Shown here: positions 3,701-19,999 of the stretch, piece after piece | Layout: each line of letters starts with the position of its first letter | Numbering within the stretch: position 1 is the stretch's first letter | Made by a program: the position numbers and the translations under genes | IMG/VR virus record: IMGVR_UViG_3300008267_005860 | Reading direction: 5' to 3' (one strand) | Length of the DNA stretch: 20,000 nt | DNA from: an uncultured virus (IMG/VR IMGVR_UViG_3300008267_005860) | Taxonomy: Duplodnaviria; Heunggongvirae; Uroviricota; Caudoviricetes | Notes under the pieces: generated by a model | The model's database searches: none | Seen by the model: the letters and a program-made list of their open reading frames with translations, nothing else | Told to the model about the DNA's origin: nothing

Positions 3701-4792
3701 ATGAGCGAGATTAGTTCACGTACCGTTGGCCCAAAGGCCGCAAAAAAGAGTCTGCGTCGTGCCTTTAAAGCCAATCGTCCGTTGTTCCTTTGGGGCCCCC
3801 CGGGTATTGGCAAGTCTGATATTGTCAAACAAATGGGCGAGGAACTCGACGCTCATGTAATTGATATCCGTTTGAGTCTTTGGGAACCCACTGACATTAA
3901 AGGTATCCCCTATTTTAATTCTGAGTCCAATCGTATGGAATGGGCTCCTCCTATCGAATTGCCAGATGCAGAGTTGGCAGCAAAACATGACAAGATCATT
4001 TTGTTCATGGACGAAATGAACTCTGCGGCTCCTGCTGTGCAGGCGGCGGCCTATCAGTTAGTGTTGAATCGTCGTGTTGGTACTTACCGCTTGCCTGACA
4101 ACGTGCTCATCGTTGCCGCAGGTAACCGTGAAACTGACAAAGGTGTTACTTATCGTATGCCTGCTCCGTTGGCTAACCGCTTTGTTCACTTGGAAATGAA
4201 AGTAGACTGGGAAGATTACTTCCAGTGGGCTACTGACAATCGTATCCACAAGGATGTTGTTGGCTTCCTTACTTTCAGCAAGAAAGACCTCTACGACTTT
4301 GACCCAAAGGCTGCTTCACGTGCCTTTGCTACTCCCCGTTCATGGACCTTTGTATCCGAGCTGTTGTTTGATGACGATGAAGACGAAGGCACTTTGACTG
4401 ACTTGGTAGCAGGTGCAGTTGGTGAAGGTCTTGCTGTTAAGTTCATGGCTCACCGCAAGATTGCAAGTAAGCTGCCTGATCCTACTCACATCTTAAAAGG
4501 CAAGGTAAAGAAGATGGACACTAAAGAAATTAGTGCCATGTACTCTTTGACTGTTAGCCTATGCTACGAATTGAAAGATTCTGCAGATAAGAATGCCAAA
4601 GATTGGAATGACCAAGTTAACTACTTCTTCGAATTTATGATGAATAACTTTGAAACTGAATTGGTTGTTATGGGTACTAAACTTGCACTTACTCAATATC
4701 AATTGCCTTTGGATCCAGATGAGATCAAATGCTTTGATGACTTCCATGCCAAATACGGTCGCTTCATTGCTGCCGCTACTGAAAAGCGTTAA
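3701..4792 (+). CDS. MoxR-like AAA+ ATPase (AAA_5 / dynein-related)
   Basis: Walker A GPPGIGKS, Walker B ILFMDE, sensor I AAGN, Arg finger LANRF, sensor II TPRSW; strong SD. Confidence 0.9.
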   Translation: MSEISSRTVGPKAAKKSLRRAFKANRPLFLWGPPGIGKSDIVKQMGEELDAHVIDIRLSLWEPTDIKGIPYFNSESNRMEWAPPIELPDAELAAKHDKIILFMDEMNSAAPAVQAAAYQLVLNRRVGTYRLPDNVLIVAAGNRETDKGVTYRMPAPLANRFVHLEMKVDWEDYFQWATDNRIHKDVVGFLTFSKKDLYDFDPKAASRAFATPRSWTFVSELLFDDDEDEGTLTDLVAGAVGEGLAVKFMAHRKIASKLPDPTHILKGKVKKMDTKEISAMYSLTVSLCYELKDSADKNAKDWNDQVNYFFEFMMNNFETELVVMGTKLALTQYQLPLDPDEIKCFDDFHAKYGRFIAAATEKR

Positions 4793-4809
4793 TTTGGTTG
4801 TGGTACCAT

Positions 4810-4838
4810 TTGACAGGACCTTCGGGTCCTGTTATAAT
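4810..4838 (+). promoter_or_regulatory. Perfect sigma70-consensus promoter upstream of the zincin-vWA gene
   Basis: TTGACA 4810-4815, 17-bp spacer, TATAAT 4833-4838. SD AGGAG at 4854-4858; ATG at 4865. Confidence 0.82.
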
Positions 4839-4840
4839 AT
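4813..4840 (+). terminator. cUUCGg-capped hairpin; possible weak intrinsic terminator or 3' stabiliser of the ATPase transcript
   Basis: ACAGGACC-TTCG-GGTCCTGT at 4813-4832 is a perfect 8-bp stem 20 nt after the stop codon. The tail is A/T-rich but not a clean U-tract. Confidence 0.5.
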
Positions 4841-4864
4841 ATACTGTATAAACAGGAGCAAATT

Positions 4865-6034
4865 ATGACTCAACTAGATCCAGTTATTGACAAAATTGTA
4901 GTAGCCCGTGTAGGACTGCTACTTCGTCATCCGTTCTTTGGCAACATGGCTACTCGTCTTAAAATTGAGGAAGCCAGTGATTGGTGTATGACTGCCGCTA
5001 CAGACGGACGCCACTTGTATTTTAATCGCGAGTTTTTTGAAAAGATGAGCGTTAAAGAAGTTGAGTTCGTAGTAGCTCATGAAATTCTTCACAATGTATT
5101 TGAGCATATGATGCGAGTTGAAGGACGCGATCCTCGCATTTGGAATGCGGCCGCAGATTATAGTGTTAACGGTACCCTTGTTCGTGATCGCATTGGCGAC
5201 AGTCCTAAAGGTATTAAAATTTTCCATGATCCTAAACACTATGGTAAAAGTACAGAACAGATCTATGACGAGATCTATAACGACTTGGACGAGCAAGAAC
5301 TTGCCGCACTGGGTCAACTGTTAGACGAACACATTGATTGGGAAAAAGACGGCAAGGATGGTCGCCCACAATACAGCAAAGATGAACTTAAAAAGATCCG
5401 TGACGAAATTAAAGAGCAGATGATGCAGGCTGCTCAGGCAGCGGGTGCAGGAAATACTCCTGCAGAGATCCAACGCATGATCCGCGAATTGACTGAGCCT
5501 AAAATGAATTGGCGTGAAATTCTTCGCCAGCAAATTCAAAGTACTATCAAGAATGACTATACCTTTATGCGTCCTAATCGTAAAGCATGGCACATGAATG
5601 CTATTTTGCCAGGCACTAACTACGATGAAACTATTGACATTTGTATTGCTATTGATATGAGTGGATCAATCGGCGATGACCAAGCTAAAGATTTTATTTC
5701 AGAAATCAAAGGCATTATGGACGAGTACAAAGACTATAAGATTAAACTGTGGTGCTTTGATACCAAAGTCTACAATGAACAAGACTTTGACGGCTACGGC
5801 GACGACATTATGGAATATGAAGTAATGGGCGGTGGTGGTACTGAATTTGATGCAAACTGGGACTATATGAAAGAGCACGATATCAGTCCTAAAAAGTTTA
5901 TCATGTTTACAGACGGTTATCCTTGGGGTAGCTGGGGTGATGAAAATTACTGTGATACTGTATTCATTATCCATGGCAATGATAAAATTGTACCGCCATT
6001 TGGCGCTTATGCCTACTACGAGTCAAAAAATTAA
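4865..6034 (+). CDS. Zincin-like metallopeptidase + vWA domain protein (DUF2201-like), MoxR partner
   Basis: N-terminal TAATDG and HEILH (HExxH), WN.A.D..VN; C-terminal MIDAS DMSGS, GGGGT.F and FTDGY. Adjacent to the MoxR ATPase. Confidence 0.88.
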   Translation: MTQLDPVIDKIVVARVGLLLRHPFFGNMATRLKIEEASDWCMTAATDGRHLYFNREFFEKMSVKEVEFVVAHEILHNVFEHMMRVEGRDPRIWNAAADYSVNGTLVRDRIGDSPKGIKIFHDPKHYGKSTEQIYDEIYNDLDEQELAALGQLLDEHIDWEKDGKDGRPQYSKDELKKIRDEIKEQMMQAAQAAGAGNTPAEIQRMIRELTEPKMNWREILRQQIQSTIKNDYTFMRPNRKAWHMNAILPGTNYDETIDICIAIDMSGSIGDDQAKDFISEIKGIMDEYKDYKIKLWCFDTKVYNEQDFDGYGDDIMEYEVMGGGGTEFDANWDYMKEHDISPKKFIMFTDGYPWGSWGDENYCDTVFIIHGNDKIVPPFGAYAYYESKN

Positions 6035-6354: not shown

Positions 6355-6567
6355 ATGACTGAAGAAGTTACTAATGTAGAAAACAATACACCAGCTGAGT
6401 CTGCACAACTGACACTCAATGATTTGGCAGCACTTAAAAGTATTATTGATGTTGCTTCGTCTAGAGGCGCATTTAAGCCAAATGAAATGGTTGCAGTTGG
6501 ACAAGCATACAATAAGCTAACCAGCTTTTTAGATACAATTTCTAAACAACCACAAGGAGTCAAATAA
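6355..6567 (+). CDS. Small helical hypothetical protein, paralog 1 (RGAFK family)
   Basis: Strong SD TAAGGAG upstream; clearly similar to the next ORF. Confidence 0.82.
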   Translation: MTEEVTNVENNTPAESAQLTLNDLAALKSIIDVASSRGAFKPNEMVAVGQAYNKLTSFLDTISKQPQGVK

Positions 6568-6803
6568 TGACTGACGAAGCTCAAGCAGTAGATCAAACTG
6601 AAGTACCACAAGCACCGGCTGCTAATCCAGAATTAACAATCTCTGATTTAGCCGCTATTAAAAATTTAATCGATGTAGTCACTACACGAGGTGCATTTAA
6701 AGGTGAAGAACTTTCCAGCGTAGGCGTTTTATACGACAAGCTCAACAAGTTTTTAACTGCCGTTCAAGCACAGGCACAGCAACAAACTGCTGAGTCAAAT
6801 TAA
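6567..6803 (+). CDS. Small helical hypothetical protein, paralog 2 (RGAFK family)
   Basis: SD AAGGAG and TAATG overlap. Shares LT..DLAA.K..IDV...RGAFK..E...VG..Y.KL..FL with paralog 1. Confidence 0.82.
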   Translation: MTDEAQAVDQTEVPQAPAANPELTISDLAAIKNLIDVVTTRGAFKGEELSSVGVLYDKLNKFLTAVQAQAQQQTAESN

Positions 6804-7773: not shown

Positions 7774-8450
7774 AAGTCAGACTCGTTTCATATAGTCAAC
7801 CTACAGAAGAATTTCGCAATCAAAACATCAACGATGCACTAGATCTAGTAGCATTTTGTGCGAGAGTAAGTAATCCTAGTAATCAATTTAACACAGAGAC
7901 TAGCGAAAAACTCATCAAATATTTGATCAAACACCAACATTGGTCGCCACTCGAAATGGTTTCAGTTTGTATTGAAATTGAAACCACTAGAGATATTGCC
8001 CGACAAGTTCTGCGTCATAGAAGTTTTAGCTTCCAAGAGTTTAGTCAACGATATGCGGATCCAACTAAAGAAATTGGCGAAGCATTTACTCTGCGTGAAG
8101 CACGTTTTCAAGATAGTAAAAATCGTCAAAACTCTGTTGAGTTTGACATGCAAGACGAACAACAAAAATTATTGGCCTACGAATGGGAACGTGCTCAGAA
8201 GCGTGTTTTATATGCTGTAGAAAAAGAATACAAATGGGCTATTGCTAACGGCATTGCTAAAGAACAAGCCCGTGCATTATTGCCCGAAGGTCTTACAATG
8301 AGTCGTATGTATATGAATGGTACTCTGCGTAGCTGGATGCACTACATTGAATTACGTAGTGCTAATGGTACGCAAAAAGAACATATGGAAATTGCTCAAA
8401 TTTGCGGTCAAGTAATTGCAGAAATATTTCCGTTGTCTAAATCACTGTAA
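7770..8450 (+). CDS. thyX: FAD-dependent thymidylate synthase
   Basis: ThyX signature RHRSFSFQEFSQRY, plus HWSPLEM, KEQARALLP and NGTLRSW.HY.ELR. Confidence 0.95.
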   Translation: MKVRLVSYSQPTEEFRNQNINDALDLVAFCARVSNPSNQFNTETSEKLIKYLIKHQHWSPLEMVSVCIEIETTRDIARQVLRHRSFSFQEFSQRYADPTKEIGEAFTLREARFQDSKNRQNSVEFDMQDEQQKLLAYEWERAQKRVLYAVEKEYKWAIANGIAKEQARALLPEGLTMSRMYMNGTLRSWMHYIELRSANGTQKEHMEIAQICGQVIAEIFPLSKSL

Positions 8451-9337
8451 TGTTGCACATTATCTGATTTTCTAGTTATATTAAAATTAAATGTTTTAAA
8501 CCATTTACTTTGAATAGCTGTTAACGGATCATCTATGGGAAGCTCGTGTTTAATGAGGTTCCCAATTTTTTTGGCTAGTTCTAAAGGATCTTCACCTTTA
8601 ACTCTATCATAGAAGAATGCATTGAGATAATCAAAGTTTCGAACATTGATAAAATTCCAATCAGTAAAGTGTGTCATGTAGCAGCCTTGGCGAGCTCCTA
8701 GTATACTCCAAATACCGTGTTCTACATCTGCACCTACCATTGACCAAATACCTAACCTTTGATAATTACCCGGCCATACATCTTTTAAATGTTTGACTCG
8801 TTGGCCTTGCTCTAGACTCATTTTTACACCTTCACGGAATCCTGCTCTCCATGCTTGTAGGGCACTGCCGTTATTGTGTATCTCACTGAAACTTTTATCC
8901 AGTGGCAAATATTCTAAATCCCAACAAAAGTCTATTTGACTTTTAACATTGTCAGCGTCAGCAAGTTCGTGTGTACGCATACCTTCTACTACATGTCTTG
9001 GCCAACATTTAATGCCACCATTGCCGTACATGAGTCCGTTGATAACATTATAACTAGGCCAACTGATTACACAATTTTCAAAATTAATATCGTTAGGAAC
9101 TTCTATTACTTGATTAAGAAACTTTCCTGTAAGTACATTGTCTCCGTCTATAGTAATAAATCTATCAGTTGTGGATAACTTTGCCGCGGCTTTGTGTGCG
9201 GCATCTGAACCCTTAACTCCATGTACTCTTTTGGCCCAAGGTATTTTATTACACAAGGCAGCATAGTTACGATCAGCGTTAGGCTCATCGTAACTAATAT
9301 AGATTACATCGTATTCACTTACTGTTATTTTTCTCAT
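8408..9337 (-). CDS. Putative GT-A fold glycosyltransferase
   Basis: YDVIYISYDE, RVHGVKG..AAHKAAA and FITIDGDN (DxD after a hydrophobic strand). Paralogous to the C-terminal domain of the 1622-aa protein. Confidence 0.62.
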   Translation of the reverse strand: MRKITVSEYDVIYISYDEPNADRNYAALCNKIPWAKRVHGVKGSDAAHKAAAKLSTTDRFITIDGDNVLTGKFLNQVIEVPNDINFENCVISWPSYNVINGLMYGNGGIKCWPRHVVEGMRTHELADADNVKSQIDFCWDLEYLPLDKSFSEIHNNGSALQAWRAGFREGVKMSLEQGQRVKHLKDVWPGNYQRLGIWSMVGADVEHGIWSILGARQGCYMTHFTDWNFINVRNFDYLNAFFYDRVKGEDPLELAKKIGNLIKHELPIDDPLTAIQSKWFKTFNFNITRKSDNVQHYSDLDNGNISAIT

Positions 9338-12300
9338 TTAAAAATTGCTCGTATAACCAATCAAAGTCATTAATCTTAAATAAGTTCTCTGGATGTTCTG
9401 TAGCAAACTTACGTCCGGCGAGTGCGCCTTTTATGGCAAATTCACCATAGGGCTTGTCTGCACCTTCTGTACACCATACATTCAAACGTTCTTCAGTTTC
9501 TGCATCTACCTGACGATCAATTGTTTTACCTGCTAGTTTAGCACATTCACGGAATGCTGACTTCCAAGTTGAAAACTCATCTGTGTTAAAAGAAGTTATG
9601 TTACTGACCACTTGAACAGGTTTAAACTTGTCACTGATACTGGTTGTCATATCGGGACGAGTTACATCCATATCTAATGTAAGTTGTCTAGGCAATAGTT
9701 TAACACCACCGTAACCGTAGACTAGATTATTAACTGGGTTTTGACTGCGCCATACATGTACAGTATCATGTTCCCATACAGGTATTTCATAGTCAAACTT
9801 GAAGTCATCAACTACAACTGCGTCACCGTCAACTACCCAGAAGTTATCTGTACCTGCCTGTTCGGCTGCTTTGATGTGTGCCTGGTGAATGCCTTTAACT
9901 CCATGTACACGTTTGACTCTTGGATATAGTGTTTTAACTCTATCAAAGTTTTCGTCAGCATTACTTTCGTTATAACTGATAAACACAATGTCATAGGGTT
10001 TAACTTTACTGGCTGTGATATCCCATTCTTTCTTTTCTACAATATAACGGAATGTGATTTCTTTTTCAGTAATTGGAACATGCTTGCTCATTAAGTTAAT
10101 ACCATTATAGTTTTCTTCACCTCTAAATAGGTGTTTAAAACTGTGATTCATATTTCTGTCATAGGTATTGTGATGACTAAAATATGTATCAAAGGCAAAT
10201 GTATCAAGAGGCTCTACTTCACTAGGTACCATCCAGAACAAGTCAGTAGTTGATTTTTCTAATGCTGTTAGATAATCTCTATATGTAGTTACTGTAAATG
10301 TATCATATTTCTTTGGATAGCTAGCTACTAATTCTATTTCTTTCTTTTCACTAAAGAATCTATACTTAAATTCTTTTTCAGATACTAGTACATCCTTGCT
10401 GAACAAACAGATACCATCCCAATGTTCTCCGTTTTTAAATATGTGAGTAATGTGTTGATTATATCGTGGAACATAGTAGTCGAAGTCAAAGTCTTCAACT
10501 ACGTCAACGTCAGTCCATATACCCCAGAACATATTAGATTCAGATAAATCACATGCTTGAACATAATCTTTGTATGTAGAAATATTGAACTTATCGAACA
10601 TTTTAGGTCTACTAGCCAACTCCATCCATTCTTTGCGATCAGTTAGATATCTAAAATTAAATTCTTTTTCTGAAATAAGTTTTTTCTTACTAGCAAGTAT
10701 AACTCCGTCATAGGTATCACCGTTTTTAAATACGTGATTTTCTTCTCTATCGTAACTGTTATGATAGCTAAAATAAAGATCAAAGTTAAACCCATTGACA
10801 ATTTCAACATCGTTAGGTACTATCCAGAACAAATCAGTATTTGAAGTTTCAACAGCATTGAGATATTCTGAATACTTGTTAATATAGAATATGTCATACG
10901 GTTTAGGAGTACTAGCTACTAATTCTATTTCTTTCTTTTCACTAAAGAATCTATAATTAAATTCTCGTTCAGTAACTAACTCATGTTTTGACATCAAGCA
11001 TATACCGTCCCAGTGCTCGTCATTTTTAAATACGTGAGTGATGTGTTGATTGTAACGTGGAACATAGTAGTCAAAGTCAAAGTCTTCAACTAAATCTATA
11101 TCATACCAAACACACCAAAACATATCTGTAGTCGATTGTTTTACTGCATTGAGATAATCATCGTAGGTTTTGATGTTAACGAATCTATTAAATTCTTTTG
11201 GTCTGCTTGCAAGTATTTCCCATTCTTTTTTATCTGGTAAAAATCTATGTTTAAATTCTCGTTCACTTATTGATTTAAACTTGCTAGCAAGTATAATACC
11301 GTCATAGGTGTCGCCATTGAGGAACATATGATTTTCTTCTCTATCGTAACTGTTATGATAGCTAAAATAAAGATCAAATTTAAATTCGTCAACTGTAATA
11401 ACATCGCTAGGAACTATATAAAATAAATCTGTAAGAGATTCGTCTACTGCATTTAAATATTCATCATAACTGTCAATATAAAATATATCATACTGTTTAG
11501 GATAACTTGCTACGTAGTCAATTTCTTTCTTTTCAGTAAAGAATCTATATTTGAATTCTCGTTCACTTACAGGTAAATGTTTACTGAATAAACAGATACC
11601 ATCAAAATGATCACCGTTCTTAAAAATGTGCGTAATGTGTTGATTATATTTAGGCACATAGTAATTAAAATCAAAGTCTTCAACTACATCAACATCATGC
11701 CATACGCACCAGAACATGTTGCTGTTAGATTCCTTACAGGCATTAAGATATTGTTCGTATGTTTTAATGTAAAATTTATCAAAGAGTTGAGGTCTACTTA
11801 CAAGTATATCCCACTCTTTTCTTTCATTTAAAAATCTGTAAGTAAATTCTCGTTCACTTATTGGTGTAGACTTGCTGGCTAAAATAACACCATCATATGT
11901 GTCACCGTTGAGAAACATATGATTTTCTTGGCGGCTGTATGTATCATGATGACTAAAATATAAATCAAATTTGTAGTCATTGACCACTACAACATCATTT
12001 GGTATTAACCAGAATAGATCTGTAGTCGCAGATTGTGCAGCATCTACGTATTCTTCGTATGTGTTAACATAGAATATGTCATAATTTTTAGGATAGCTAA
12101 TAGTATAATCAACTTCTTTTTTATCAGTAAAGAATCTATATTTGAATTCTCGTTCGCTTACTTTATTATACTTGCTAAACAGGCAGACACCGTCCCAGTG
12201 CTCGCCATTTTTAAATACATGAGTGATATGTTGATTGTAACGTGGAACGTAGTAGTCAAAGTCAAAGTCTTCAACTACATTAACATCCGGCCATACACAC

Positions 12301-14183
12301 CAAAACATACTTGTTTTAGATTGTTCACAGGCTGTGAGATATTCTTCAAAAGAATTAATATACCATACTTCAAACTTAACTGGAGAACTGGCAAGTATCT
12401 CTTCTTCTTTTCTATCTATGATAAACTTATTAGTAATTTCTTTCTGTGAAATTTCTATATATTTGCTTACTAAAAAAATACCATCATAGTAATCGCCATT
12501 TAACAACGCATGATTTTCATATCGTGTACATTGTACATTAAATTTAAAATCTTCCAATACGTTAACATCGCTTGGAATCATATAAAACATGTCTGTTGTT
12601 GTCTGTGTTTTAGCTTCTAAATATTGCTCGTATGTGTCTACAATAAATTTATCATATGGTTTAGGATAACTTGCTATGTAATCTACTTCTTTCTTTTCAT
12701 TGAAGAATCTATACTTAAATTCTTTTTTGCTAATTTGATAATGCTTGCTGAACAAACATACGCCATCTAGATACTCGCCGTTTTTAAACACATGAGTTAT
12801 ATGTTGATTATAACGAGGAACATAATAATCAAATTCAAAATCTTCAACTACATTAACATCAGTCCATATAGCCCAGAACATACCTGTTGTAGATTTCTCC
12901 ACTGCTGTTAGATAATCATTGTATGTAGTAATTTCAAATTTATCAAACGCTGTTGGCATACTGGCTAATTCATCGTGTTCTTTTCTATTGATAACAAACC
13001 ATGAATTGAATTCTTTTTTGCTAATTTCCTGTTCTCTAGGAGTTAGCATAATGCCGTCATAAAAATCACCGTTTCTAAACACATGATTGATAGTTCTATT
13101 ATATGTGTCATGATGTGTGTAGTATAGGTCAAGTTTAAAATTGTCTAATATTTTTAGACTGGATGGTACTATCCAGAACATGTCAGTTGTTGAGTTATCT
13201 ATAGCTTCTAGATATTCTTCGTAGGTATCTATGTTGAACTTATCGTAGGGTTTAGGATAACTGGCTACGTAGTCAACTTCTTTCTTTTCATTAAAGAACC
13301 TATACTTAAATTCTTTATCACTTACTTTATTATGCTTGCTGAACAGGCAAAGTCCATCGTAGTGATCACCGTTCTTAAAAATGTGCGTAATGTGTTGATT
13401 ATAACGAGGTGCATAATAATCAAAGGTAAAATCTTCTACAATTTCTATATCATACCAAACACCCCAGAACATATCTGTTGTTGATTGATCACAGGCAGAT
13501 AGATAATCTTCGTAGGTCTTAATATTAAACTTTTCAAATTCTTTAGGTCGACTGGCAAGAATTTCCCACTCTTTTCGATCGCTTAAAAATCTATATTTGA
13601 ACTCTCGTTCGCTTATTGGTTTAAATTTCGACGCTAGTATAATACCATCATAGGTGTCACCGTTGAGAAACATATGATTTTCTTGTCTCTCGTAACTGTT
13701 ATGGTGACTGAAATACAGATCAAACTTAAACTCGTCAACAACATCAACATCGCTAGGCACTAACCAAAACAAATCAGTAGTTGAATTTTCTAATGCTTCG
13801 CAATATTCTTCATATGTGTCTACATAAAAAATATCGTAGCGTTTAGGACAACTTGCTACTAAATCAATTTCTTTTTTATCAGTGAAAAATCTATATTTTA
13901 ATTCTCTGTCACTAATATACTTGTGACGAGGGATCAAAGACAATCCATCAAAATATTCGTTATTTTTAAAAATATGCACATATTCTTCATCCCATTTAGG
14001 AATTGAATACGAAGAAAAATCAAAATCTTCTTTTAATTCTATATCGTCCCATACTGTCCAGAACATAGCAGTAAGGGCTTTTGATTTAGCTTCGTCAAAA
14101 TTTTTGGCTTTTTTAGCAAACGGATATTTTGATTTGATAGTTTTCCAGTTTGGATTGTTTCCAATAACAAAAATATCGTACAT
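9315..14183 (-). CDS. Giant protein: 14 tandem degenerate GT-like modules plus C-terminal intact GT-A-like domain
   Basis: Uninterrupted 1622-aa ORF. The last 227 aa (9315-9998) contain YDIVFISYNE, RVHGVKGIHQAH and FWVVDGD. The preceding 1395 aa consist of roughly 100-aa repeats. Confidence 0.85.
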   Translation of the reverse strand: MYDIFVIGNNPNWKTIKSKYPFAKKAKNFDEAKSKALTAMFWTVWDDIELKEDFDFSSYSIPKWDEEYVHIFKNNEYFDGLSLIPRHKYISDRELKYRFFTDKKEIDLVASCPKRYDIFYVDTYEEYCEALENSTTDLFWLVPSDVDVVDEFKFDLYFSHHNSYERQENHMFLNGDTYDGIILASKFKPISEREFKYRFLSDRKEWEILASRPKEFEKFNIKTYEDYLSACDQSTTDMFWGVWYDIEIVEDFTFDYYAPRYNQHITHIFKNGDHYDGLCLFSKHNKVSDKEFKYRFFNEKKEVDYVASYPKPYDKFNIDTYEEYLEAIDNSTTDMFWIVPSSLKILDNFKLDLYYTHHDTYNRTINHVFRNGDFYDGIMLTPREQEISKKEFNSWFVINRKEHDELASMPTAFDKFEITTYNDYLTAVEKSTTGMFWAIWTDVNVVEDFEFDYYVPRYNQHITHVFKNGEYLDGVCLFSKHYQISKKEFKYRFFNEKKEVDYIASYPKPYDKFIVDTYEQYLEAKTQTTTDMFYMIPSDVNVLEDFKFNVQCTRYENHALLNGDYYDGIFLVSKYIEISQKEITNKFIIDRKEEEILASSPVKFEVWYINSFEEYLTACEQSKTSMFWCVWPDVNVVEDFDFDYYVPRYNQHITHVFKNGEHWDGVCLFSKYNKVSEREFKYRFFTDKKEVDYTISYPKNYDIFYVNTYEEYVDAAQSATTDLFWLIPNDVVVVNDYKFDLYFSHHDTYSRQENHMFLNGDTYDGVILASKSTPISEREFTYRFLNERKEWDILVSRPQLFDKFYIKTYEQYLNACKESNSNMFWCVWHDVDVVEDFDFNYYVPKYNQHITHIFKNGDHFDGICLFSKHLPVSEREFKYRFFTEKKEIDYVASYPKQYDIFYIDSYDEYLNAVDESLTDLFYIVPSDVITVDEFKFDLYFSYHNSYDREENHMFLNGDTYDGIILASKFKSISEREFKHRFLPDKKEWEILASRPKEFNRFVNIKTYDDYLNAVKQSTTDMFWCVWYDIDLVEDFDFDYYVPRYNQHITHVFKNDEHWDGICLMSKHELVTEREFNYRFFSEKKEIELVASTPKPYDIFYINKYSEYLNAVETSNTDLFWIVPNDVEIVNGFNFDLYFSYHNSYDREENHVFKNGDTYDGVILASKKKLISEKEFNFRYLTDRKEWMELASRPKMFDKFNISTYKDYVQACDLSESNMFWGIWTDVDVVEDFDFDYYVPRYNQHITHIFKNGEHWDGICLFSKDVLVSEKEFKYRFFSEKKEIELVASYPKKYDTFTVTTYRDYLTALEKSTTDLFWMVPSEVEPLDTFAFDTYFSHHNTYDRNMNHSFKHLFRGEENYNGINLMSKHVPITEKEITFRYIVEKKEWDITASKVKPYDIVFISYNESNADENFDRVKTLYPRVKRVHGVKGIHQAHIKAAEQAGTDNFWVVDGDAVVVDDFKFDYEIPVWEHDTVHVWRSQNPVNNLVYGYGGVKLLPRQLTLDMDVTRPDMTTSISDKFKPVQVVSNITSFNTDEFSTWKSAFRECAKLAGKTIDRQVDAETEERLNVWCTEGADKPYGEFAIKGALAGRKFATEHPENLFKINDFDWLYEQFLNEKNNSK
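9999..14183 (-). repeat. Intragenic tandem repeat: about 295-bp units alternating between two subtypes (about 590-bp super-period, 7 pairs)
   Basis: Subtype B: FW.VW.D...DF.FDYYVPRYNQHITH.FKNG...DG.CL. Subtype A: FW..P.D...F.FDLYFS.H..Y.R.ENH.F.NGDTYDG..L. Exact nucleotide copies include 10735-10784 = 11329-11378. Confidence 0.92.
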
Positions 14184-14189
14184 ATCATT

Positions 14190-14921
14190 CTACCAGGTAA
14201 TAAACTTATATAGCTCTTTTGCGTAGAGCTCGTGAGGTTTTCCTCCATGATGCCAATACTGCGCCAGTGAGTTTTGATGTCCTTCTCTCACATACTTGGG
14301 ATAAAAGGCATTGTAAGAATTATCAAAGTCCATGTAACGGGATCCGTCTATTAATTTTAAGTAAAAGTCAGTCCATCGATCTCTTTTAGCAAAGTGCATA
14401 GTATTACACATGACATAAGGAATGTCCATTGACTTAAAATAAGATTGCATTTGGTGAGCAAGATTTAAACTTTGTATTTCTAAATATGATTGATTTGATG
14501 CCATGAACTTTTGATAGAATGGTATTATACGTTTTTCCCAATCAGCGTTTCCGTTAAATCCAGGATTTAATCTATAGAATACATTATTAGTGTTTCCAAA
14601 CCAAGAGTTAGTTTCAGATATAATGTATTTTGTTCCTAGCTCTGAAGGTATTTCCATACGTATACTTTCAGTCCATGCAACGCATATAAACAAATCCATA
14701 GTTGATACGTCATATTCTTTATGCAACCATTCTAGTACAGACCTAGCTATAGTAGGATTAGCCGATCCCGGAGACGAAATATTAATAGGTCTACGACCCA
14801 ACATACTTGCTAATAAGTTCCCGAATGAGTTATTTCTGTTAAAATCAGAATCTAATTTTCCATCTATTTCTGAGCCGGCTGCATGACTACATCCAGAGAT
14901 GAGCATAACTTTTTCTTTCAT
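14190..14921 (-). CDS. SGNH/GDSL-like hydrolase or acyltransferase
   Basis: N-terminal ISGCSH (block I-like, Ser nucleophile), NISSPGSAN (block II-like) and C-terminal WHHGGKPH..YA (block V-like His). Confidence 0.5.
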   Translation of the reverse strand: MKEKVMLISGCSHAAGSEIDGKLDSDFNRNNSFGNLLASMLGRRPINISSPGSANPTIARSVLEWLHKEYDVSTMDLFICVAWTESIRMEIPSELGTKYIISETNSWFGNTNNVFYRLNPGFNGNADWEKRIIPFYQKFMASNQSYLEIQSLNLAHQMQSYFKSMDIPYVMCNTMHFAKRDRWTDFYLKLIDGSRYMDFDNSYNAFYPKYVREGHQNSLAQYWHHGGKPHELYAKELYKFITW

Positions 14922-16174
14922 TTCTCTAACCTCTGTACTGTTTTAAAAGTTGTTTTTTCTAACAAACAGTGATAGTTATGATCTAATACTTCCTGCATTT
15001 GATTATAAATTTCTCTTAACTCATTAATACTTTTTGAATTTATGTAATTAATTAAATTTAAAATTTTTATAATACGCTTTTCATGATTTGTTTCTTGATC
15101 ATAACTTTCGTCCCAAAAATCTGAAAATGTTTTAAAGCCCATTCTTTTAGCATATTCTATAGTATGAGGAGGTGCTACTAATATAAAAGGACGCTTATAT
15201 CTTATGGCTTGATATAATTTTTCGCTGTAATTACCACAATGCTGTGCAAATCTTGTTTCATTAATTACATCACAAAAACTATCATTGTAAAAATTTTCTA
15301 ATGGATTTAATCTAGGATTATTAATTGCAGGAGTTTCATAGATAGTATAATCATCTGTCACTGGATAATGAGATGCTGTATTATCAGTTATTTCTACTAA
15401 AGCTTTAGCTTTGATATCTAAACATACTGGAGAATGATAATTTAAAATTTCTAATCCAGAGTTAAGTTGATCATATAGTTCTTTATTTGTTTTTTTCCAT
15501 TGATGTAGAGGAAAAAATAAATCATGTGAAAATGCTTGGTTATTACAATTAAAATACCAACTGTAGTTAGAAGAAACTGTTGATAAGAATGCAGTAATTA
15601 GATGACGATGTTTTGTGTATCGCCAATTTACACAAATAAATTTTTTAGTAAATTTGTTATTAGGAAAACTCTCAAATAAAGAATAATTTTTTAAAAATAG
15701 ATCATTTGTTACTAACTTCATCATCTTTGTATAATGTGGATGATAGTGAGCTGCTTTGTAATCACAGGTATTTACTATTACTTTTTTTAAACCATTACGT
15801 GTAATATATTCTTTAATACTTTCTAACTCATCAGCTCGCATTTCTTGTACATTTGTTTCAAAAGGAAATTCACTGTAAAATCCTCTGTTGTGATGATACT
15901 GTTCTTTACGAGAACAAATAGGTTCGTATAAGAAAAAATGCAAACCTAAATTATTCATAATTGATATGTCGTCAATACTATGACTGATATTTTTTAATCC
16001 CGTTAATTCTCCGTTACCCATGTAAACAAACACAGGCACATGAGGAGCCAGGCCTGAAGAATTTCTAACCTGCTTCATAAAAAGATTTGCATCTGTTTCA
16101 GCGCGGTTTGACATGCCCGGAATATTAAACCAATGTAGTTGTGTTAATTCGTGCTCAGGGGGGCTAGTAATCAA
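14918..16174 (-). CDS. Hypothetical protein with C-terminal GT-B/GT10-like motif (putative glycosyltransferase)
   Basis: TTG start overlapping the upstream stop (TTGA). C-terminal FCDVINET...NYSEKLYQAI..KRPFI resembles the F....EN....Y.TEK...A....PI motif of GT10 fucosyltransferases. The functional call is weak. Confidence 0.45.
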   Translation of the reverse strand: MITSPPEHELTQLHWFNIPGMSNRAETDANLFMKQVRNSSGLAPHVPVFVYMGNGELTGLKNISHSIDDISIMNNLGLHFFLYEPICSRKEQYHHNRGFYSEFPFETNVQEMRADELESIKEYITRNGLKKVIVNTCDYKAAHYHPHYTKMMKLVTNDLFLKNYSLFESFPNNKFTKKFICVNWRYTKHRHLITAFLSTVSSNYSWYFNCNNQAFSHDLFFPLHQWKKTNKELYDQLNSGLEILNYHSPVCLDIKAKALVEITDNTASHYPVTDDYTIYETPAINNPRLNPLENFYNDSFCDVINETRFAQHCGNYSEKLYQAIRYKRPFILVAPPHTIEYAKRMGFKTFSDFWDESYDQETNHEKRIIKILNLINYINSKSINELREIYNQMQEVLDHNYHCLLEKTTFKTVQRLEK

Positions 16175-16671
16175 AGCAGTTCTCCTGTAATCTGAAGTGT
16201 ATATCTATCTTCTACTCCTATATTACTAGCTGCATGAGGAACATCATATTGCCAGAAAAAATAGTCGCCTGCTTTCCAATTTACATAGCCAACATCTGCT
16301 ATTTCTAAATAATGTCCGGGTTGCCAATCTTCTAACATAATTAAAACTCTACAGACATTTGTTGGAACTGCATTAAACAATTTAGTATAAGTTCTAAAAT
16401 GGTCAGTATGAGTAGGCATTATTTCTAGGGTACTCATTTTATAAAAATTATATGTTTGATTTTTTAAACCAAATATATTGTTAAACTTTTCTACCCAACT
16501 TGGCAATGGGTTTTTACTGTCATACATTGATCCTGTAAAACTTTTTATACAGTCATAACCTTTTTCTTTCCACTGGGCAATTTCTTGTTCAGTTACTGGT
16601 TGTTTAACGTAAGAAAAAGTCCTATAACTTTTATCCCAAAAAGGATTAACATGTCCAGTATAAAAGTTCAT
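16171..16671 (-). CDS. 2OG-Fe(II) oxygenase / cupin-fold (DSBH) protein
   Basis: HxD...H facial triad (PTHTD ... PHAASN) followed by R.TLQITG, as in Asp/Asn beta-hydroxylase-like enzymes. Confidence 0.7.
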   Translation of the reverse strand: MNFYTGHVNPFWDKSYRTFSYVKQPVTEQEIAQWKEKGYDCIKSFTGSMYDSKNPLPSWVEKFNNIFGLKNQTYNFYKMSTLEIMPTHTDHFRTYTKLFNAVPTNVCRVLIMLEDWQPGHYLEIADVGYVNWKAGDYFFWQYDVPHAASNIGVEDRYTLQITGELL

Positions 16672-17645
16672 GTATGCTTCCTTTGTATGTCAAGGGTGAC
16701 ACAATGAAAGCCTCCACCTAATGTACGCTGTTGCCTCATTGGTAGCATTGCACATTCAATACCATATTTTTCTAATTCTTTACGTAGGTTGTGTTGATTT
16801 TCTTCTAATGCAACTAGATTAGGATTAACACTGAACAAATTCATATTAATCCATGTGCTAGCATTACAGTAACCAGGATAATGTCCAATATCAATAGGTT
16901 CAGGACACCATATGTAGTCCCATGACTGTAATGGTTTAGGTAACTGATCAATACTTTTAATCCTAGCAGGATTTAACAACATTAGGCCTTCGCGAAGTAA
17001 CCCGATAGTACTGTCTAAATGCATATAACTATACACACCTTCGATAGTCCAAACTTTGTTATTAGGCAGTAACTCTTGTAGATACTCAGCGCCTTGCTTG
17101 TTGCCACTGTTACTGACTAGATAGTATAAATTATCATTGTCTCTTAAAATGTTAGCTGCATCAAAAGCTGGCTCAGTCTCGTTAAGTGCTAGTGTGTTAG
17201 GATCTCCAAGACATTTTAAATTATATAAATCTTCGTCATGCGAACATCTAGCAATCGTTACAACATAGTTGTTTTCAAAATGTTCTTGCAGGGCAAAATA
17301 TTCATTGTGTCTTGCTTTTAATGGTTGAGGTGTTGATAAAATTAATTTATCATGTACTAACACTCCGTCTCTAGGACAATAGTTATAGTAATTAGGAACA
17401 ACATTTTTGTTTGGTCTTAATACAGTTACTCCGCAGGATTTTAAAAAAACAACAAATTTTTCTAAATCTTCATTGGCTTCATCAATAACTTGTTGTGGAT
17501 AAGGTCCTACTGGAATTTCGTTGACATCTTTTACATCTGCATAATTAACAGTTCTTAAACTAATATCGACGGAAGGTATTTTAGCATCGTCTGCAATACC
17601 AACTATAACTGTTTCTAATGGATCCCATTCATTTTTACTTAACAT
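16668..17645 (-). CDS. Amidinotransferase (glycine / inosamine-phosphate amidinotransferase family, StrB1-like)
   Basis: NEWDPL..VIVG, YCPRD, FDAAN (catalytic Asp), MHLDST (His) and LGGGFHCVT (Cys) give the complete pentein catalytic set. Confidence 0.9.
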   Translation of the reverse strand: MLSKNEWDPLETVIVGIADDAKIPSVDISLRTVNYADVKDVNEIPVGPYPQQVIDEANEDLEKFVVFLKSCGVTVLRPNKNVVPNYYNYCPRDGVLVHDKLILSTPQPLKARHNEYFALQEHFENNYVVTIARCSHDEDLYNLKCLGDPNTLALNETEPAFDAANILRDNDNLYYLVSNSGNKQGAEYLQELLPNNKVWTIEGVYSYMHLDSTIGLLREGLMLLNPARIKSIDQLPKPLQSWDYIWCPEPIDIGHYPGYCNASTWINMNLFSVNPNLVALEENQHNLRKELEKYGIECAMLPMRQQRTLGGGFHCVTLDIQRKHT

Positions 17646-18225
17646 TGAACACCTTCATTTTTGATATATCAGGATAATCTGCATTACTCCATTTTTTTGG
17701 AGTTAAATCTTTTACTTGATTGAATTTTTCTATACCTAGCTCTGCTGTTTCAGGAGTCATATAATAATGATAACCAAACATATCAACGTCCTGTTCTTTC
17801 CAAGGCATGTCTTGAAGTCGACCGTCATAACTCATTTTTTTAAGAGTCTGCGCAGAAGAATAATTATCAGTAAGAATAATTCCGCCTCGTCCTAGGTTAA
17901 GATGTTTTTTATATTGGAAACTTAAACACATAAATGTATCCGGCACGTAGCTGTTTTCTTTCCATAAAACTGCTGCATCAATAACATTAGTATTACCAAT
18001 AAAATAATAGTCTTGCCATATTGAGTCTGCAAATTCCCAGGACAAGCCTAATTTTTCAAATGTCATTGGTATAGACAGATAGGTATGTGTAGGACAGGTT
18101 ACTAACCTAGGATTTATATGTCGTAGACAAAGTTCTATAGCGTGTGTACAACTATCGGTTGCAACAGCATATTTAGAACCAAAATATTTTGCAATGGTGT
18201 TTTCAAAGTTAACTATTGGGGACAT
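17635..18225 (-). CDS. Short DegT/DnrJ/EryC1/StrS-family PLP aminotransferase
   Basis: FE..IA.YFG.KYAVATDSCTHAIEL, IDAA, CLSFQYKKHL.LG.GG (PLP Lys) and GYHYYM. Only 196 aa. Confidence 0.82.
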   Translation of the reverse strand: MSPIVNFENTIAKYFGSKYAVATDSCTHAIELCLRHINPRLVTCPTHTYLSIPMTFEKLGLSWEFADSIWQDYYFIGNTNVIDAAVLWKENSYVPDTFMCLSFQYKKHLNLGRGGIILTDNYSSAQTLKKMSYDGRLQDMPWKEQDVDMFGYHYYMTPETAELGIEKFNQVKDLTPKKWSNADYPDISKMKVFNVK

Positions 18226-19999
18226 TTTCTTTTATGTTCTTAATACTAGAGATTGGAATTACTACATTAGAGTGCATTGCTGCCTTTTCAGGAATAGCTT
18301 CCATTTTTGAAATATTTGGAACTTCTACTTCGTACTCTTTAAAATTACCCCAATGACCTTGGCCTCTATATCTATACTGAAAGGTAAAATCTATTGTGTT
18401 ATTTAAAATTCTTTCTTCTTCTAAAAGAACATTAAAGTCGTCACCACTTCTGCCAGCTTCAACATCCCATGTTGGTTTAGCTAACTTCCTTGCTCGCTTT
18501 GCAGTATTACTCATCATGCGACTATAATCCTGAGCATAGAATGGTCCTTTACGACCTCTAGGCGGAGGCTCTCTTTCGTCGTAGGGATTATCAATTTGAT
18601 CAAATTTGTATTTAAAATCAGCAGTCCATTGACCGTCATCTGAAATTTTAAATTTAAATAATGCGTTATACATTCCTGGACCGTATTGGGTTCCAAATTC
18701 TTTTAGATCAATTGTGGGATTAAATAAAATTTCAGCTTCATACCCGCCTCGAGTTTTCCATAGCATACGGAAAAATGGCCACATCTCATTTACTAGTGCA
18801 TCAGCAAAAGGATTAAGATTAGGTTTAATTATATTGTAATCAAACTTTTCATATTCAATTTCTTTTATAAGGTATGGATTGTTTAATTGTATTTTATAGT
18901 GCTCTTTAGCTAGATTAAATCTTACAGGGTATCCAAAAGGTACTTCAGTACATCCCGTCATTAAATCTAGGAACATATGGAGTGTCTTTACTCTGGTCAT
19001 AACATGTGTACCACCTTTGGTAAAATCACTAGTGATCCAATGTCCTTGATATTTTTGTGCGCTGATATTAAACTTATGTGTATTCTGCCCAACAATAGTT
19101 TCCGGTCCTAGACCGTAGCCTACACCGGCGCCAACATTGTTGATATTCATGTCACGCATACGCCACAACAGAGTCATGCTATCAGCAAAGTCTTGTAGCG
19201 TTTCTGTAGGGAATCCTACGATCCAGTTTGTAGCAGCATAGATACCAACTTCCTTACCATCGCGGAAGTTCTGTTCCATTTCTGCAATAGTAACACCTTT
19301 GGCCATGTCGTCTAATACGCTTTGACTGCCGCTTTCAATACCGTAGTTTAGCATAATGCAGCCTCCGGCTTTTAGATCTTTAAAATACTCTAGATCCATG
19401 CGGCCATCACAACGAGCATAACCTGTCCAATTAATTTTAAGACCTTTAGCTTCAACTGCTTTACAAAATGCACGTAGTTCTTTTAAATTGCCGTTAACAA
19501 GACTATCAATGAACCAAATAACATCAACACCTTTATTGTAGTAAAGCCATTCTATTTCAGAAATAAGATCGACTGACTGACGCTGACGATATTTCCAAAA
19601 GTGTGTTTCTTCGCAGAATGTACATTTAGCTGTACAACCTCGACTAATTTCTGTGTTAACACCGTTGGGTAGATCGTAAAGACTAAAGTCAATACTTTCG
19701 TAATCAGGCATTGGCAATCCATTAATATTAACACGCTCGTATTCATCTTGAGTAAGCACAACTGATTCACTGTGTTCAACGCCATTTTCTACATCTTCTA
19801 ATAATTTTAACAGATTAATTTCACCTTCACCCACCACAACATAATCGTAATAAGGATGTACGGTAAACCAACTTTTATGTGCGTTGGGGCCGCCAACTGC
19901 AATTTTAATATGCGGTGCTCTGCGCTTTAATTCTTGCGCCATCCACTTTGTAGGTTCTTCGCTGATATAGTACATAGAAAACCCTACTACTTGAGGATT
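18209..19999 (-). CDS. Cobalamin-binding radical SAM enzyme (class B methyltransferase-like), 5' end outside window
   Basis: Frame is open to the window edge (NPQVVGFS-MYY). B12-domain motifs VVGFS, IAVGGP and VVVGEGE; SRGCTAKCTFC (CX3CX2C); GIESGSQ; IVGFPTET; extra C-terminal region. Confidence 0.88.
   Translation of the reverse strand, partial: NPQVVGFSMYYISEEPTKWMAQELKRRAPHIKIAVGGPNAHKSWFTVHPYYDYVVVGEGEINLLKLLEDVENGVEHSESVVLTQDEYERVNINGLPMPDYESIDFSLYDLPNGVNTEISRGCTAKCTFCEETHFWKYRQRQSVDLISEIEWLYYNKGVDVIWFIDSLVNGNLKELRAFCKAVEAKGLKINWTGYARCDGRMDLEYFKDLKAGGCIMLNYGIESGSQSVLDDMAKGVTIAEMEQNFRDGKEVGIYAATNWIVGFPTETLQDFADSMTLLWRMRDMNINNVGAGVGYGLGPETIVGQNTHKFNISAQKYQGHWITSDFTKGGTHVMTRVKTLHMFLDLMTGCTEVPFGYPVRFNLAKEHYKIQLNNPYLIKEIEYEKFDYNIIKPNLNPFADALVNEMWPFFRMLWKTRGGYEAEILFNPTIDLKEFGTQYGPGMYNALFKFKISDDGQWTADFKYKFDQIDNPYDEREPPPRGRKGPFYAQDYSRMMSNTAKRARKLAKPTWDVEAGRSGDDFNVLLEEERILNNTIDFTFQYRYRGQGHWGNFKEYEVEVPNISKMEAIPEKAAMHSNVVIPISSIKNIKENVPNS

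Follow-up and report, generated by a model that had tools for sequence, protein, structure and literature searches.

Tandems of a dead and a live GT-A domain, as well as islands of glycosyltransferase (GT) genes beside phage tail fibres (PMC7029224), are already in print. In the two-domain beta-1,3-glucosyltransferase B3GLCT, a duplicated N-terminal GT-A domain that is truncated at its C-terminus and lacks the DxD motif is reported to be needed for acceptor binding (PMC13597200). The rulers WbdD and WbbB are described as coiled coils that link a terminator to a membrane anchor or polymerase site at the opposite end (PMC11231755). Mycobacteriophages encode GTs that, according to later papers, decorate virion proteins (Freeman et al. 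2023, cited through PMC12619734 and PMC12363180). Here we compare with these systems a gene for a giant protein of 1622 amino acids (aa) that lies in a 20,000-nucleotide stretch, hereafter the window, forming the end of a 72.9-kb virus record (IMG/VR IMGVR_UViG_3300008267_005860). The record stems from an uncultured freshwater giant phage and carries phage replication and structural genes. As in the published account of B3GLCT, a presumably live C-terminal GT-A domain stands behind truncated, DxD-less duplicates of itself. We tentatively read the protein as a live GT-A transferase with a dead binding arm of variable length, probably used for fibre or virion glycosylation (rough probability 0.45); the architecture and the modelled fold, taken alone, we regard as very probably right.

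Results

Layout of the giant gene

The features of the gene, which was delimited by its open reading frame (ORF) and unit boundaries, are listed below.

9315–14183, minus strand: giant protein, 1622 aa, with the unit classes N-cap, six short-A/B cassettes, one long-A and a terminal domain of predicted GT-A fold
13839–14183, minus strand: N-cap unit (residues 1–115; B1 in the preliminary description), the least truncated copy of the terminal domain, with a clade of its own and the best profile match to that domain
10308–13838, minus strand: six cassettes, each a short-A unit (S, 94–100 aa) followed by a B unit (97–98 aa)
13248–13838, 12657–13247 and 12084–12656, minus strand: cassettes 1–3
11493–12083, 10899–11492 and 10308–10898, minus strand: cassettes 4–6
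9996–10307, minus strand: long-A unit (L, 104 aa; A7 in the preliminary description), which adjoins the terminal domain here and precedes it in 11 of 11 close orthologs
9315–9995, minus strand: terminal domain T, 226 aa, residues 1397–1622, with a predicted GT-A core (about 1397–1538) and a helical C-terminal part
9822–9830, minus strand: DGD (DxD) motif of T, residues 1452–1454, seen in the sequence and kept in 175 of 175 relatives

One ORF holds 14 units of 94–114 aa, as the preliminary description had recognised, and a single terminal domain of 226 aa; with the labels of that description, the site of T's DGD reads W-x-D in all seven B units and P-x-D/S/E in all seven A units. Of the order given there, (B-A)×7-T, the alternation stands for this protein and the labels do not: B1 is of the N-cap type and A7 of the long-A type. 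The array is N-(A-B)×6-L-T, that is, N-(S-B)×6-L-T. Pairwise identity is 63–75% among B2–B7, 42–80% between A units, 34–49% between A and B units and 20–31% between units and T. The array is strongly acidic, with a net charge of −83, and aromatic residues (F, W or Y) make up 19% of it; the giant protein has no hydrophobic segment (maximum 19-residue hydropathy 0.87).

Searches of the giant protein against Pfam (GT families included), PHROGs, NCBIfam and PDB sequences gave no useful match, nor did Tandem Repeats Finder on the gene, and the ESM Atlas returned nothing beyond unnamed viral clusters at 0.95 or more. TFAM matches among the PDB sequences (E 0.01) were dismissed as compositional noise.

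Misassembly, which the preliminary description had named as a way for the array to fail, is ruled out by near-identical IMG/VR assemblies, short exact repeats and even contig depth. Three of the four near-identical assemblies share the length of 4869 nucleotides (nt), with 0, 1 and 27 mismatches, and the fourth (L002) carries an in-frame deletion of 240 nt; the longest exact DNA repeat inside the 4869-nt gene measures 50 nt. Contigs of run X1 covered 30 of 30 gene bins at a depth of 12.8–29.5 with no indels listed, and those of run X6 covered 28 bins. One X1 contig has two 20-nt-side joints, probably from another organism. On these assemblies and run contigs, rather than on spanning long reads, the array is real. 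The deletion in L002 (L002:6059–10687) creates an A/B chimera with a 5-nt overlap at the junction, which is either a variant or an assembly error.

The units are shortened and probably inactive homologs of T

Profile-profile comparison (hhalign) of the four unit types with 120 T sequences gave probabilities of 96–99% at E-values of 1e-9 to 1e-17, and 20 of 20 column-shuffled controls stayed under 1%. Together with the structural models, this comparison upholds the earlier proposal that the repeats are shortened homologs of T. The N-cap forms a separate clade, found in 11 of 11 orthologs (support 1.0), and matches the T profile at a probability of 99.0%.

Three modelled units have an identical secondary structure, which equals the T core minus its first helix, its second strand and the C-terminal helices. 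In the alignment, this helix-strand pair is lost from 13 of the 14 units, the N-cap retaining part of it, and the units do not contain a complete nucleotide-binding beta-alpha-beta unit. Modelled alone, the last S-B cassette reached a predicted local distance difference test score (pLDDT) of 94.3 and a predicted template modelling score (pTM) of 0.81. In this model, each unit aligned separately with GT-A chains, with about 95 of its 98 residues matched, a root mean square deviation (rmsd) of about 3 and Z scores of 4.4–6.5; Foldseek of the repeat pair against the PDB returned nothing at E 0.001 or better. Because of this unit-by-unit alignment and the sequence homology to T, we predict that every unit forms a minimal GT-A core in its own right, about 98 residues long.

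The DxD motif is absent from 14 of 14 units in the window; the relatives hold 583 repeat units (554 parsed, 29 unparsed), and a single one of the 554 parsed units keeps it. The residues Y1404, E1406, R1425, G1431 and D1511, which are invariant in T, are also missing from the units. Because these losses are combined, the units are probably inactive as judged from their sequences, in agreement with the catalytic death proposed before. The residues conserved among the units are F, W, Y, H, G, L, E, K and S. Nonsynonymous and synonymous divergence (dN/dS) relative to the ortholog L010 was 0.112/1.115 over the 1198 codons of the repeats; T gave 0.024/0.49 and its neighbour, gene D, 0.083/0.85. The estimate comes from one ortholog pair, with synonymous sites near saturation in two units. 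With a dN/dS of about 0.1, the repeats are under purifying selection and are not decaying.

T has a predicted GT-A fold and an intact DxD motif

Modelled with AlphaFold2 from 89 sequences, the 527-aa stretch of T and the three units before it reached a pLDDT of 92.7 and a pTM of 0.77. In this model, the T core has a Rossmann-like alpha/beta/alpha layout and matches the GT-A/nucleotide-diphospho-sugar transferase superfamily, with B4GALNT1 (9h6j) at Z 11.2 (rmsd 2.8, 137 residues aligned) and further matches to a MobA-like protein (Z 10.5), an IspD-type protein (10.2), WrtF (9.8) and SpsA (9.2). Fifty-six chains matched at Z of at least 8, and nearly all of the 50 listed are members of the GT-A superfamily. 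Foldseek of T put GT2-type enzymes on top (K4CP and WrtF; E about 2e-5), with viral glycosyltransferase models ranking behind two uncharacterised relatives; a model of the Che8 glycosyltransferase was among the matches (E 3.4e-4, 12% identity) as a generic GT-A match. Structure comparison and Foldseek bear out the predicted GT-A fold that had been assigned to the terminal domain. The identity of T to its structural GT2-type matches is 8–15%, and the Pfam GT2 models (PF00535/PF13641) rise above cut-off in two of 20 T homologs scanned and not in the window protein.

In T, DGD sits at the end of a predicted strand, with the DxD after the fourth, core strand. DGD or DAD is kept in 175 of 175 distinct T domains, a set composed of the best 120 of 2544 matches, ORFs from 80 of 261 viral loci and one phage record; because this set was picked by likeness to T, intact T domains are favoured in the count. 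YG.GG.KL and D1511 are invariant in T and, by position, are candidates for the G-loop and the xED base. MobA/IspD-type nucleotidyltransferases carry a glycine-rich signature loop after strand 1. The corresponding stretch of T, YDIVFISYNE, has no glycine despite the fold match. Most likely, T is a soluble, metal-dependent GT2-like transferase.

Unit order and number among relatives

The 11 close orthologs (T 84–99% identical) carry 12–17 units each, and a tree of 159 units resolves four groups: N-cap, B, long A (L) and short A (S, which is not monophyletic). Strict alternation is limited to one of the 11, the window protein, and A-unit runs of up to five occur among the others. Every B is preceded by an S and every S is followed by a B (46 of 46 cases, after one unit was reassigned to L by its tree position), compared with a mean of 16 and a maximum of 26 in 10,000 shuffles. 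L units stand singly or in runs, and an L is always the unit before T. Among distant relatives, B-B runs (P0024, P0029) and A-only arrays of 16 units (L062) are found. The preliminary description had inferred that the units fold as an obligate BA pair, which is ruled out by the unit order in orthologs and distant relatives: the fixed neighbours are A then B, in this clade only, and A-A runs, B-B runs and A-only arrays all occur. An obligate fold of this kind also disagrees with the models, in which each unit singly matches a whole GT-A core. Because shared descent of a duplicated cassette can account for the non-random S-B order, a structural need is dispensable.

A survey of repeat number, which had been suggested as a check, gave a range of 0 (13 proteins) to 17 units among 110 proteins without a D fusion, part of these counts being lowered by contig ends. 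Standalone T is common among relatives. A full T stands at the end of 60 of the 72 repeat-bearing representatives of at least 400 aa, and most of the others look truncated.

Several relatives depart from this layout. In P0143 (536 aa), a single all-pseudo case, the units are joined straight to the helical C-terminus of T and the catalytic core is missing. The distant relatives P0014, P0019, P0033, P0073 and L099 have longer repeats (about 120 aa) that are more T-like, which suggests independent expansions from T. The array gene at L054:6854–10696 is present as two consecutive ORFs (843 and 411 aa), either a split gene or a sequencing error. P0128 extends beyond its repeats and T into a C-terminal region that weakly matches the SCP2 sterol-transfer model (PF02036, 21.5 bits; cut-off 21.3).

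The sugar-tailoring island

The giant gene is the last gene of a sugar-tailoring island that starts directly behind tail-fibre-like genes. Gene D and, upstream of the giant gene, the other island genes of the window are as follows.

8408–9337, minus strand: gene D, 309 aa, a full-length T paralog with intact DGD, downstream of the giant gene (hhalign probability 100, E 7.6e-42)
14190–14921, minus strand: 243-aa ORF without a Pfam match above cut-off, a PHROG or an NCBIfam match; from a motif we take it to be SGNH-hydrolase-like
14918–16174, minus strand: 418-aa ORF without a library match, which we assume may be a GT-B-type transferase
16171–16671, minus strand: 166-aa ORF with an HxD...H pattern and no library match, presumably 2-oxoglutarate-Fe(II) (2OG-Fe(II)) oxygenase-like
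16668–17645, minus strand: 325-aa gene matching phrog_25854 of unknown function (E 2.5e-28), presumably amidinotransferase-like
17635–18225, minus strand: DegT/DnrJ/EryC1/StrS-family aminotransferase, short form (PF01041, E 3.6e-18)
18209–19975, minus strand: B12-binding radical SAM protein (PF04055, E 2.8e-16; NCBIfam B12 radical SAM models all below cut-off)

In record G001 (31% complete), which has the same gene with one mismatch, the island runs about 13 kb further to tail-fibre/collar PHROG matches and holds a uridine diphosphate (UDP)-sugar dehydrogenase, twitch radical SAM proteins and a second D paralog. This paralog (L083:8414–9310) occupies the usual island place, so that the parts read contain two D and one T. 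In another context, fibre genes precede the repeat gene and neck and sheath genes follow it.

D is fused to T in 65 of 175 proteins and lies inside the locus in 28 of 40 loci of at least 15 kb, which are not independent of each other; other relatives have D-T-methyltransferase fusions. In P0026, P0032, P0044 and P0056, D-T is followed by a variable number of helical repeats of about 18–19 residues and then by a C-terminal domain that resembles RsoM2USA_347 and that we assume to be methyltransferase-like. These helical repeats, unrelated to the array units, give the pathway another variable spacer.

Repeat-free T homologs are found in bacteria. In Photorhabdus (L102–L104, L106), they stand alone, flanked by a GT4 gene and by two GT2 genes, with exporter genes nearby. 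The remaining bacterial cases (L095, L101, L091, L094) include one in WOR-3 beside a GT28-like gene and repeat-free D-T or radical-SAM-T fusions in Bdellovibrionales/Oligoflexia, with a phage-type island in L091. Elsewhere in the window, two adjoining small, paralog-like ORFs (70 and 78 aa; 6355–6803) form a pair kept in L009 and L011, and positions 3701–6034 hold a MoxR-type AAA ATPase followed by a DUF2201 metallopeptidase/VWA gene.

Discussion

In the reading that we prefer, T would act as a metal-dependent sugar transferase in a late pathway for a modified glycan whose probable target, judged by gene position, is the fibres or the virion. The array would be an optional arm that grips a repetitive acceptor or a partner and thereby raises avidity or processivity, an idea that rests on analogy with the dead domain of B3GLCT. 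Such an arm would have grown as single L units and the two-unit S-B cassette were duplicated in tandem, and it would improve or retarget an enzyme that also exists repeat-free. What we infer in this scheme is the activity of T, the inactivity of the repeats, the binding role of the arm and the acceptor. The bacterial standalone homologs among GT4 and GT2 genes count for the transferase reading of T.

Several points weigh against this scheme. Certain active GT-A enzymes are reported to do without DxD (GT14, bacterial GT6; 10.1101/2019.12.31.891697), so that loss of the motif by itself is no proof of inactivity. The Z scores of the units are below 8 and rated middling by the comparison tool; they nonetheless agree with the sequence homology to T. 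The residues conserved in the units may be purely structural, and the units correspond to half a GT-A domain and lack the hypervariable regions by which B3GLCT binds its acceptor. For T, the matched superfamily includes nucleotidyltransferases that are tied with GTs in Z score (the MobA-like and IspD-type proteins). A position near fibre genes does not identify the acceptor.

The last point leads to a host-surface target, in which T would modify lipopolysaccharide or capsule and block superinfection. The GTs of fibre-adjacent host recognition clusters are read in this way, as host O-chain modification, in the published account of those clusters (PMC7029224), and homologs of the island occur in Bdellovibrionales/Oligoflexia genomes. 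We consider this target unlikely, given that the giant protein lacks a membrane segment and that its place within the virion-structure module, in two contexts, better fits late virion-linked action. A doubtful but serious alternative is a scaffold, in which dead units would reuse GT-A contact surfaces to recruit the island enzymes (D, methyltransferase, radical SAM proteins) to T. The frequent fusion of pathway enzymes and the persistence of four unit types across orthologs agree with it, and COSMC, a dead GT-A protein, is reported to serve an active paralog as scaffold or chaperone (10.1101/2019.12.31.891697); a scaffold with fixed partners, however, would not obviously call for 0–17 units in shuffled order, and a standalone T suffices in phages that have those partners.

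That the array is a rigid spacer whose length dictates that of the glycan which T makes or caps seems to us improbable. The arm does vary in length with an enzyme at one end, the pTM of the three-unit-plus-T model is compatible with ordered interfaces, and the helical repeat between T and methyltransferase in relatives recalls the spacer-separated terminators described in part of the ruler literature (PMC11231755). The far end, however, carries a dead N-cap alone, with no second enzyme and no hydrophobic membrane segment, and the spread from 12–17 units in close orthologs to none in many relatives weakens a strict ruler. P0143, which keeps units and the helical C-terminus of T and has lost the catalytic core, and the acidic, aromatic composition of the array would fit an array that serves by itself as a decoy or structural element, either on the virion or inside the cell, with T secondary; we hold this to be very unlikely, since P0143 is a single case against the many repeat-bearing proteins that end in a full T. 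We give least credence to DNA hypermodification, in which T would glycosylate modified bases and the array serve as a processivity arm. Phage GT-A enzymes are known for this activity (10.1101/2023.12.21.572611), and a ThyX gene and a small oxygenase-like gene lie close by. The strongly acidic array is ill suited to DNA binding, though, and ThyX, encoded on the opposite strand, is found next to T in only six of 40 loci, all close relatives. Described clusters adjoin C5-methyltransferase/5mYOX or ThyS genes (10.1101/2023.12.21.572611), whereas Pfam, PHROG and NCBIfam scans named no C5-methyltransferase, 5mYOX/TET or ThyS in the window.

With 0 to 17 units attached to one enzyme, the array amounts to a length series made by nature. 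It also yields a GT-A core predicted to be pared down to about 98 residues and offers a way into the sugar-tailoring islands, so far unexplained, that large aquatic phages carry next to their tail fibres. Units that bind glycan would represent a new type of lectin or ruler; units that bind proteins, a new pseudo-enzyme scaffold. A bolder version, which we think rather unlikely, is a new class of repeat protein, a minimal pseudo-GT-A chain that would read or measure a growing glycan, its N, L and S-B grammar being reshuffled between strains to retune chain length or acceptor choice and to diversify the virion sugar coat.

Comparison with known systems

We found no published description of an array of dead cores in the literature searched, most subscription papers and supplements lying outside its scope; the preliminary description likewise knew of none. 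GT2-type GT-A enzymes (K4CP 2z86/2z87, WrtF 9omh, SpsA 1h7l, SunS 7msp) share the predicted fold of the T core and units and carry the DxD after the fourth strand as T does, and T homologs give weak PF00535/PF13641 matches. T differs in having a helical C-terminal part of its own, and multi-domain GT2 polymerases consist of active domains, in contrast to the dead array here.

Ralstonia phage RsoM2USA (MG752970.1), the only cultured phage match among 50,697 records, encodes T (protein 348, 233 aa, 44% identical to T) and D (protein 350) as unannotated hypotheticals in an island that follows structural genes in the same order as here; its T is standalone and without repeats. Neither protein is among the ten virion bands identified in the available account of this phage (PMC8504454). 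The host recognition cluster of pelagimyophages and cyanomyophages is likewise reported as a variable, fibre-adjacent island with several glycosyltransferases and radical SAM cassettes; it belongs to another phage group, its function is likewise inferred, and no repeat-array enzyme was seen in the published portion consulted (PMC7029224). The GTs that decorate mycobacteriophage virions have no array in the accounts cited, and for the present lineage a virion glycan is a proposal; the core GTs listed in the moraphage paper are, as far as the text seen goes, not linked to this lineage (PMC12619734).

WbdD and WbbB resemble the window protein in that an enzyme ends a long spacer of variable length. 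Here, the spacer is predicted to be a chain of alpha/beta domains and not a coiled coil, which sets it apart from such rulers, and, unlike in the published outline of WbdD and WbbB, the N-terminal end has no membrane anchor, terminator or DxD, although an amphipathic helix or a partner site is possible. The closest parallel remains B3GLCT, and in both proteins the dead domain can be traced to the live one (here at an hhalign probability of 96–99%). As described, that eukaryotic GT31 enzyme has one near-complete dead domain whose binding of the acceptor, in a cleft shared with its live neighbour, was demonstrated, compared with 14 half-size units of four types in the window protein, 0–17 in relatives, for which binding is proposed by analogy. 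The architecture is real, unusual and widespread in related phages; what the literature searched did not show is a tandem array of up to 17 half-size, probably dead cores that is kept by selection and reshuffled between strains.

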